Positions 20,909-21,365 of a stretch of DNA of 32,000 nt are shown piece by piece. The translations under genes were made by a program, and so were the position numbers. Below the pieces are notes generated by a model. It worked only from the letters and a program-made list of their open reading frames with translations. It did no database searches and was not told where the DNA came from. Origin of the DNA: Wolbachia endosymbiont of Cimex lectularius (lineage in GTDB: Bacteria > Pseudomonadota > Alphaproteobacteria > Rickettsiales > Anaplasmataceae); the NCBI RefSeq assembly GCF_000829315.1, contig NZ_AP013028.1, positions 737,574 through 769,573 on the forward strand, given 5' to 3'. Each line of letters starts with the position of its first letter. Position 1 is the stretch's first letter.

Positions 20909-21365
20909 CAACAGAAACAAAAAAACTACCTTGACAAATTTCTCCGGTTCCCTTATCATATTATTGAAGCTATTTATTTATTTTCGCAATCTGTGCAGGT
21001 TAATGACAAAAAACTTAGGGTATTTGGCGTCTCATGTTTAAATTTTTGCACTATGTGCACCTCACGTCTTTTTAAAACTTCTGGTTTTTACCTATACAAG
21101 CTGAAACGCGCTTATAAGTCGTTTAAGACAGTATAGAACGTCAAATAGACAAGGGAGAATTTGAATACTAGCTGCTCTAGGTTTCTTTTGCCTTTTTTTC
21201 TGCTCAGTAAATTTCTTAACGTTTACAGTTTGGGTTATTTGCATTTAAAAGTAGCTGAATCGTAGCGCTGAGAATAAAAACGCCGATATTTGAGGTACAT
21301 ATAAATAATTAGCCACCGACCAGGGTTTCTTTTGCCTTTTTCTCGTTTAGTAAATTTCTTAAGCA
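20909..21365 (+). repeat. promoter-bearing intergenic repeat, copy C (two 3' modules)
   Basis: Aligns with copies A, B and D. Lies between the NTF2-like gene and rsmE. Confidence 0.85.
20931..20959 (+). promoter_or_regulatory. near-consensus sigma70 promoter inside repeat copy C
   Basis: TTGACA 20931-20936, 17-nt spacer, TATCAT 20954-20959. Confidence 0.55.

Follow-up and report, generated by a model that had tools for sequence, protein, structure and literature searches.

An ARM-family repeat of Wolbachia as a probable genus-wide non-coding transcription unit with a plausible but unproven RNA fold

The window, a 32,000-nt stretch of the genome of the Wolbachia endosymbiont of Cimex lectularius (NZ_AP013028.1, positions 737,574 to 769,573), contained four copies of a dispersed repeat, all on the + strand. 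Copy C lay at 20907-21380 between a SnoaL-like gene and rsmE. It was a whole element, matching positions 5-486 of an nhmmer profile built from 48 full-length copies with a score of 470 bits. The same search placed the full-length copy A (promoter TTGACA-17-TATCAT at 2588-2616) at 2563-3035, upstream of the signal peptidase gene lepB, copy B, with one tandem unit, at 11261-11585, and copy D at 29144-29436. A full copy was about 470 nt long and non-coding. Its 5' part consisted of a short A-rich head, TTGACA, 17 nt, TATNAT, a leader of some 40 nt that varies between copies, and a conserved core, and its 3' part of two tandem units of about 140 nt, each with ACGCCAA at its start and a weak hairpin, T-runs and GTAAATTTCTTAA at its end. 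In copy C these end modules, members of a direct-repeat family (D3) with six copies across the window, were located at 21179-21219 for unit 1 and 21322-21362 for unit 2, both on the + strand. The window also contained a 300-nt direct repeat (family D1) at 1082-1381 and 30408-30707, 99% identical over a distance of 29.3 kb and unrelated to ARM, with a third, partial relative at 755-806 (family D5). Two tandem 67-nt units with 93-nt spacing (18601-18760, family D9) were found within the large ORF 17992-20142, and their sequence read like ankyrin repeats. Rfam identified tRNA genes at 17769-17841 (+) and 11066-11139 (-), the latter about 120 nt upstream of copy B.

A search of the whole genome with the profile gave 197 nhmmer hits, which merged into 149 loci with a total length of 53.9 kb, or 4.3% of the 1,250,060-bp genome (36.25% G+C). 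The loci were almost all intergenic, and only three of the 149 overlapped an ORF of at least 120 aa. No conserved reading frame was found across the copies: their longest stop-free stretches measured between 32 and 88 aa, and Pfam gave no match for the 81-aa ORF that overlies copy C. A covariance model of the repeat core matched 46 of 60 genomes of the genus, and BLAST of the repeat against 16 genomes from other genera returned no matches. The flanks of the repeat throughout the genome (for example, 3036-3100 and 21381-21440 of the window) were assembled from a few other recurring modules, among them tails of the 'GGATGACA' type and with 'TATCAAACAAGATACATAATAAATTCGCTA' and a head with 'CACTACACAGAAAGCGGACAGACAACAGTGGAAAAAA', so that the family is mosaic and the intergenic space amounts to a patchwork of such modules. 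Another genome of 0.9 Mb (G005) carried four AT-decayed copies (L046, L052, L062 and L072) with 24-33% G+C, which were 27-48% diverged from the consensus and still recognisable. These look like old, dead copies and make a useful neutral yardstick.

The family has already been published as a DNA marker. ARM, the Wolbachia "A-supergroup repeat motif", was introduced by Schneider, Klasson, Lind & Miller (2014, BMC Microbiol 14:121, PMC4029913) with an assay of two primers, ARM-F and ARM-R, that yields a 315-bp amplicon. In the available part of that paper it serves as a PCR target present in multiple copies (about 20-24), with specificity claimed for supergroup A. Among the 60 genomes of the genus, the ARM-F site was present in 13, one of which had 24 sites. 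Five ARM-F loci from three genomes were compared with the profile, of which four had the two primers at a distance of 315 bp and one had ARM-F only, and all five aligned to profile positions 4-486 with E values of 1e-86 to 1e-94. Because the ARM primer loci align end to end with the profile, ARM and the repeat of the bed-bug Wolbachia are one family. In the genome of the Cimex lectularius endosymbiont itself ARM-F had no match at up to one mismatch; the homologous site in copy C (20983-21003) differed from the primer through indels. Both descriptions concern an intergenic, dispersed repeat of about 440-470 bp that is associated with tandem units, whereas the roughly 20-24 supergroup A copies of ARM compare with 149 loci here and with a family found in 46 of 60 genomes. 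ARM has been tied to the loci VNTR-105 and VNTR-141 (PMC4029913; Riegler et al. 2012, PMC3287509). VNTR-141 was considered as a possible source of the ~140-nt units; the link rests on the statement of the ARM paper, since the VNTR paper prints no sequence. ARM was handled as a DNA marker only in the available text of PMC4029913, in which the word "promoter" does not occur, and a literature search with sequence strings returned no matching text.

A promoter scan of copy C revealed a -35 box TTGACA (20931-20936, +) and a -10 box TATCAT (20954-20959, +), with 11 of 12 consensus matches and a 17-nt spacer. The promoter was recognisable at 106 of the 130 loci that retain the 5' end; the spacer was exactly 17 nt in 102 of these 106, with a variable sequence among copies, and TTGACA was perfect at 100 loci. 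Throughout the genome, 122 of 156 TTGACA-N17-TANNNT sites were located inside the repeats on the repeat's own strand, so most near-consensus promoters of this genome belong to repeats and not to genes. Table S1 of a Cappable-seq study (PMC12558409) prints every start site with the 50 nt before it and the 100 nt after it, and these printed sequences were used for the comparison of start sites. Four rows from wMelPop-CLA (oTSS_-_131390, oTSS_-_528421, an intragenic site in the gene 713812-714012, and iTSSps_+_1067756) carried ...CTTGACA-17-TATCAT plus six bases upstream of the start, and downstream GAAGCTAT... or GAGGCTAT..., which is the leader of the window from 20966 onward. Transcription started at the G that lies seven bases past TATCAT, or at the base before it. 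The row oTSS_-_528421 was identical to copy C across the stretch matching 20983-21042, and the intragenic row of gene 713812-714012 also held the ARM-F primer. Since homologous wMelPop-CLA copies start there, the primary start of copy C is predicted to be G20966 on the + strand, the seventh base after the -10 box. PMC12558409 lists the four as orphan or intragenic sites with no relation to one another; its text names neither ARM nor VNTR loci and does not group the rows into one repeat family, and the start sites of the repeat thus sit unrecognised in that supplement. Multi-mapping reads were discarded in that study, and most repeat copies were therefore invisible there. The supergroup-B strain wAlbB showed a start site (oTSS_-_948669; PMC12558409, Tables S2 and S3) in the conserved core of a diverged copy, at ...AAGCT|TGAAACGG, instead of at the 5' promoter.

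Public RNA-seq reads (run X22) at least 97% alike were counted over 20500-21900. RNA depth was about 0.6 over the promoter (20923-20969), 70 at 20970-21016, 298-376 at 21017-21157, 139 at 21158-21204, 20-40 at 21205-21345 and about 2 after 21346, compared with about 35 in the upstream gene and about 5 in rsmE, the downstream gene. Depth and fragment starts together delimited an abundant RNA segment at 21008-21204: 55 fragments started at 21008, and depth fell about fourfold past approximately 21204. About half of the reads over copy C derived from other copies. The number of copies closely matching C was 10-12 at 20965-21010, 14 around 21040, 24-34 at 21068-21127 and 2-3 at 21142-21200; by these counts, copy number does not account for the jump in depth at 21008. 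The segment 21158-21204 was almost specific to copy C, and its RNA was several-fold above that of the neighbouring genes. DNA contamination was excluded by the uneven coverage of the unique flanks. Because the libraries were unstranded, the + strand of the segment and the start site were taken from relatives through homology with wMel. The sharp fragment starts, together with the published start sites in homologues, showed that a discrete RNA is expressed. The "repeat transcript" downstream of the -10 box that the earlier note had proposed was thus borne out by the RNA-seq data and by the wMel start sites on homologous copies, and the species of 150-250 nt that it had anticipated fits the segment from 21008 to about 21200, roughly 190 nt in length.

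The ends of this RNA did not coincide with the predicted transcription start. Reads started at 21008, with a further pile-up of fragments at 20984-20986, and not at 20966, so that processing or a second start is needed. For a second promoter behind the 21008 end, the promoter scan and direct reading yielded no more than weak -10-like matches, whose -35 box was wrong or absent. The low depth between 20966 and 21008, seen for example over 20970-20984, suggests that the leader is removed or unstable. At the 3' side, a scan for intrinsic terminators, which required a T-run after a G+C-rich stem of 5 bp or more, detected none in copies A or C; despite this, RNA depth dropped at the T-runs.

The strong consensus promoter raised the possibility that the repeats act as mobile promoters or as 5' leaders that drive or regulate the downstream gene, and three of the four copies in the window face a gene on the same strand (lepB, a gene for a 682-aa protein, and rsmE). 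Genome-wide, however, the downstream ORF was co-oriented at 69 loci and opposed at 80, and the median gap to it was 286 nt, compared with 85 nt on the 5' side, where the upstream ORF was co-oriented at 91 loci and opposed at 58. In copy C, the RNA depth fell from about 370 to 1-2 before rsmE was reached, and this reading is very improbable.

Other Wolbachia transcripts from intergenic regions have been described. The small RNAs ncrwmel01 and ncrwmel02 are intergenic (Woolfit et al. 2015, PMC4349823), and the available part of that paper describes ncrwmel02 as one intergenic locus that is conserved in supergroups A-D, and does not mention a repeat family. Neither a structure nor a link to repeats is reported for these RNAs in the portion available. 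A highly transcribed wMel intergenic region between hemC and sucB (527,661-528,615), given in the same part of PMC4349823, contains the ARM-family start at 528,421.

The promoter lies upstream of the RNA start and is copied with the repeat, so the spread of the family is DNA-based. This counted for a reading in which the inverted repeats serve as hairpin or protein sites for the copying, recombination or mobilisation of a MITE- or REP-like mosaic, with the transcript being incidental. The high copy number, the intergenic and modular nature of the family, its flanks of recurring modules, the internal tandem units and the deletion variants all agree with such a role, and a census ranked a Wolbachia pipientis genome among the prokaryotes with the highest MITE density (PMC11602168). 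However, neither terminal inverted repeats nor a target-site duplication was found in the ends and flanks of 59 full-length copies, and a scan for inverted repeats near the repeat ends revealed complementarity between A/T runs only; both hallmarks of a MITE were therefore absent from the repeat. Moreover, the genome search found no solo copies of the helix-bounded core, and the family had no linked transposase. We consider a DNA role of the inverted repeats unlikely. The Correia elements (CREE/NEMIS) of Neisseria, like other small repeats that bear promoters, resemble the family in being short and non-coding, in lying between genes in high copy number, in carrying promoter elements and in being transcribed. 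They are about 100-155 bp long, with clear terminal inverted repeats and a TA duplication, whereas the Wolbachia repeat is about 470 bp long, lacks terminal inverted repeats and carries a complete promoter that faces inward.

The earlier note had described a conserved hairpin core closed by a long-range GGCGT/ACGCC helix. In copy C, the 5' half of this closing helix, TTGGCGT (21024-21030, +), pairs with the 3' half ACGTCAA (21138-21144, +) through one G-T pair. It encloses the mini hairpin GCAC-tat-GTGC (21048-21058, +) and a larger hairpin at 21064-21131 (+), in which ACGTCTT (21064-21070) faces AAGACAG (21125-21131), with five pairs in copy C and seven in copies with AT...AT at these positions. 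Inside the larger hairpin are the stems GGT/ACC (21083-21092, +) and AAGC/GCTT (21098-21113, +). All of these coordinates and letters proved correct in copy C. The statement that the elements are shared by copies A-D held in so far as copies A, B and D exist and align, but in copy D the mini hairpin was missing, removed by an internal deletion seen in the alignment. Among 131 copies, 83 possessed both halves of the closing helix and the mini hairpin, while 48 lacked at least one of these segments: 21 were without the 5' half and the mini hairpin yet kept ACGCCAA, 14 were without the mini hairpin alone, and 13 were without other combinations. The mini hairpin was missing in 43 of the 131 copies. 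The ACGCC motif recurs as ACGCCGA at 21280-21286 (+), at the start of tandem unit 2, and the 3' half of the closing helix is therefore part of the internal duplication of about 140 nt. In the 521 nt around copy C, 26 inverted-repeat pairs of at least 7 nt were found, among which the closing helix ranked 13th; in one AT-rich sequence, it was no more than expected by chance.

The folding energy of the full RNA gave little signal. Relative to shuffled sequences, the z-score of the RNA 21008-21205 was -0.98 on the + strand and -0.11 on the - strand, and that of the region 20966-21365 was -0.64; the closing helix was missing from the lowest-energy folds of both of these longer RNAs. In the 62-63 copies folded individually, the mini hairpin had a mean pair probability of 0.82-0.85 and was present in the lowest-energy fold of 51-56 copies, compared with a mean pair probability of 0.46-0.56 for the closing helix and about 0.34-0.36 for the remaining three stems. 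When the domain was cut at the closing helix, the helix closed the lowest-energy fold in nine of ten representatives, with z-scores of -0.8 to -3.0, and these representatives span four deep subfamilies with differing interiors; the tenth, which lacked the 5' half, had a z-score of +0.3. In sliding windows, the z minimum fell on the domain in five of six subfamilies, and the mean z was -2.4 at the domain versus -0.2 to -0.8 when the window was shifted by at least 30 nt. Additionally, in place of the GCAC/GTGC of the main type the ARM subfamily had a different hairpin of 6-7 bp, and it carried TAGAT/ATCTA instead of the TAGGT/ACCTA of the other copies, a change from G-C to A-U in the GGT/ACC stem. 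Since the representatives are related by descent and the position of the helix guided the choice of the cut, these results indicate a conserved inverted repeat that would pair if the RNA can fold freely, not selection for pairing. The closed domain of the earlier note is therefore thermodynamically plausible in several subfamilies, but evolutionary support for the pairing was not obtained.

The idea that the transcript is a structured non-coding RNA, in which the hairpin core and the GGCGT/ACGCC helix are selected and needed for function, drew on differences between the copies in the closing helix that keep pairing possible. RNAalifold detected no consensus structure: with 90 copies from the genome itself (mean identity 76%) it returned one spurious 4-bp stem at -0.2 kcal/mol, and with 69 distinct copies from 11 genomes it returned no pairs. 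The 25 proposed pairs were then counted in a structure-blind alignment of these 69 copies, with the partners shuffled 500 times. Standard pairs filled 86.6% of the cells versus 85.9% after shuffling, and the covariation score was 0.099 versus 0.096, a value reached by 95 of the 500 shuffles. An R-scape-like test (G-test with average-product correction, with the null simulated per column on a FastTree phylogeny) was applied to 150 distinct copies, 99 from the genome itself and 51 from other genomes. None of the 25 proposed pairs covaried significantly against this tree-based null in the deep alignment, and all E values were well above 1. The top-ranked column pairs fell in a variable stretch and were 4-5 columns apart, and therefore they cannot be helices. 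By parsimony on the tree, standard pairs changed 47 times to G-U, 42 times to A-C and 49 times to other mismatches, with three double changes. The ratio of G-U to A-C changes, 53:47 (p=0.67), equals the neutral expectation. The wobble-compatible changes that had been taken as a hint of constraint at the RNA level thus did not hold up in these 150 copies, and the substitutions in further copies disrupted the helices at the neutral rate; the claim of constraint fails under the refuting conditions that the earlier note itself had set.

The proposed structure was given its best chance in a covariance model, to which 97 matches from across the genus, 85 of them distinct, were aligned. In this model-fitted alignment, paired cells amounted to 87.6% versus 86.7% after shuffling, and the covariation score was 0.105 versus 0.099, reached by 13 of 500 shuffles; pairs changed on both sides numbered 14 versus 8.3, a count reached by none of 500 shuffles. 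In the larger hairpin 76-80% of the cells were paired across the 69-copy and the model-fitted alignments, with many breaks. Of the 35 cells with double changes, 18 came from the four AT-decayed copies of the single 0.9-Mb genome, and within those copies the association of changes on the two sides had a p value of 0.09. The faint excess of double changes is likely due to decay from G to A and from C to T, which turns G-C into A-U without selection. Across all sequences, a strong association of two-side G-C changes was also seen; it was confounded by unequal divergence and was not used as evidence. Rfam at gathering thresholds matched only the two tRNAs in the window, and at E values up to 10 it gave only chance-level hits in the repeat region, so the region has no match to a known family there.

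Substitutions in the helices behave as neutral decay, and the fold is plausible but unproven. For a selected structure speak the accumulation of RNA precisely where the closed domain lies, the closing helix in the lowest-energy fold of nine of ten representatives with the z minimum on the domain, the slight excess of two-side changes and the replacement hairpin at the position of the mini hairpin in the ARM subfamily. Against it stand the lack of any significant pair, the paired cells and covariation score close to those of shuffled partners, the equality of G-U and A-C changes, the AT-decayed copies in which mutation bias alone suffices, the 48 of 131 copies without at least one segment, and the RNAalifold result and the full-length z-scores. 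A structured RNA under selection for its pairing is accordingly improbable. A related possibility is a multicopy structured RNA, in which the UUGGCG/CGCCAA domain would be cut from the primary transcript, with its 5' end at 21008 and its 3' end at about 21200, and would act in trans from more than 100 loci, for instance as a sponge, regulator or host-delivered RNA, its subfamilies swapping hairpins instead of showing point covariation; we regard this as distinctly improbable. A real structure may still exist beyond the power of the alignment to prove it.

Copy C is, with good probability, one copy of the ARM family, a Wolbachia-wide non-coding transcription unit whose pairing is not visibly selected. 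A near-consensus promoter of the sigma-70 type (TTGACA, 17 nt, TATCAT) would fire into the repeat, with transcription most likely starting at G20966. The 42-nt leader would be removed or unstable, so that the accumulating RNA covers about 21008-21200, and the T-rich end modules of both ~140-nt units may act as leaky terminators or as 3' ends. The RNA can fold into the domain closed by UUGGCGU/ACG(C/U)CAA with a stable mini hairpin, and its helices are conserved inverted repeats that are inherited with the repeat and not visibly maintained by selection. Our best guess is that the family is a selfish, mosaic repeat of intergenic DNA that retains its promoter through selection or through the mode of copying, and that the repeat RNA is a by-product or a regulator of low specificity.

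Genetic manipulation of Wolbachia is not possible, and little is understood of how it regulates its genes. In this genome, 122 of the 156 near-consensus promoters come from a single repeat family, whose RNA exceeds that of the neighbouring genes. Standard pipelines drop multi-mapping reads, and the repeat RNA is therefore a large and mostly ignored part of the transcriptome. The lack of evolutionary support for the helices guards against filing this RNA prematurely as a structured small RNA, and it directs attention to the promoter, to the processing of the RNA near 21008 and about 21200, and to the mechanism by which the repeat spreads.
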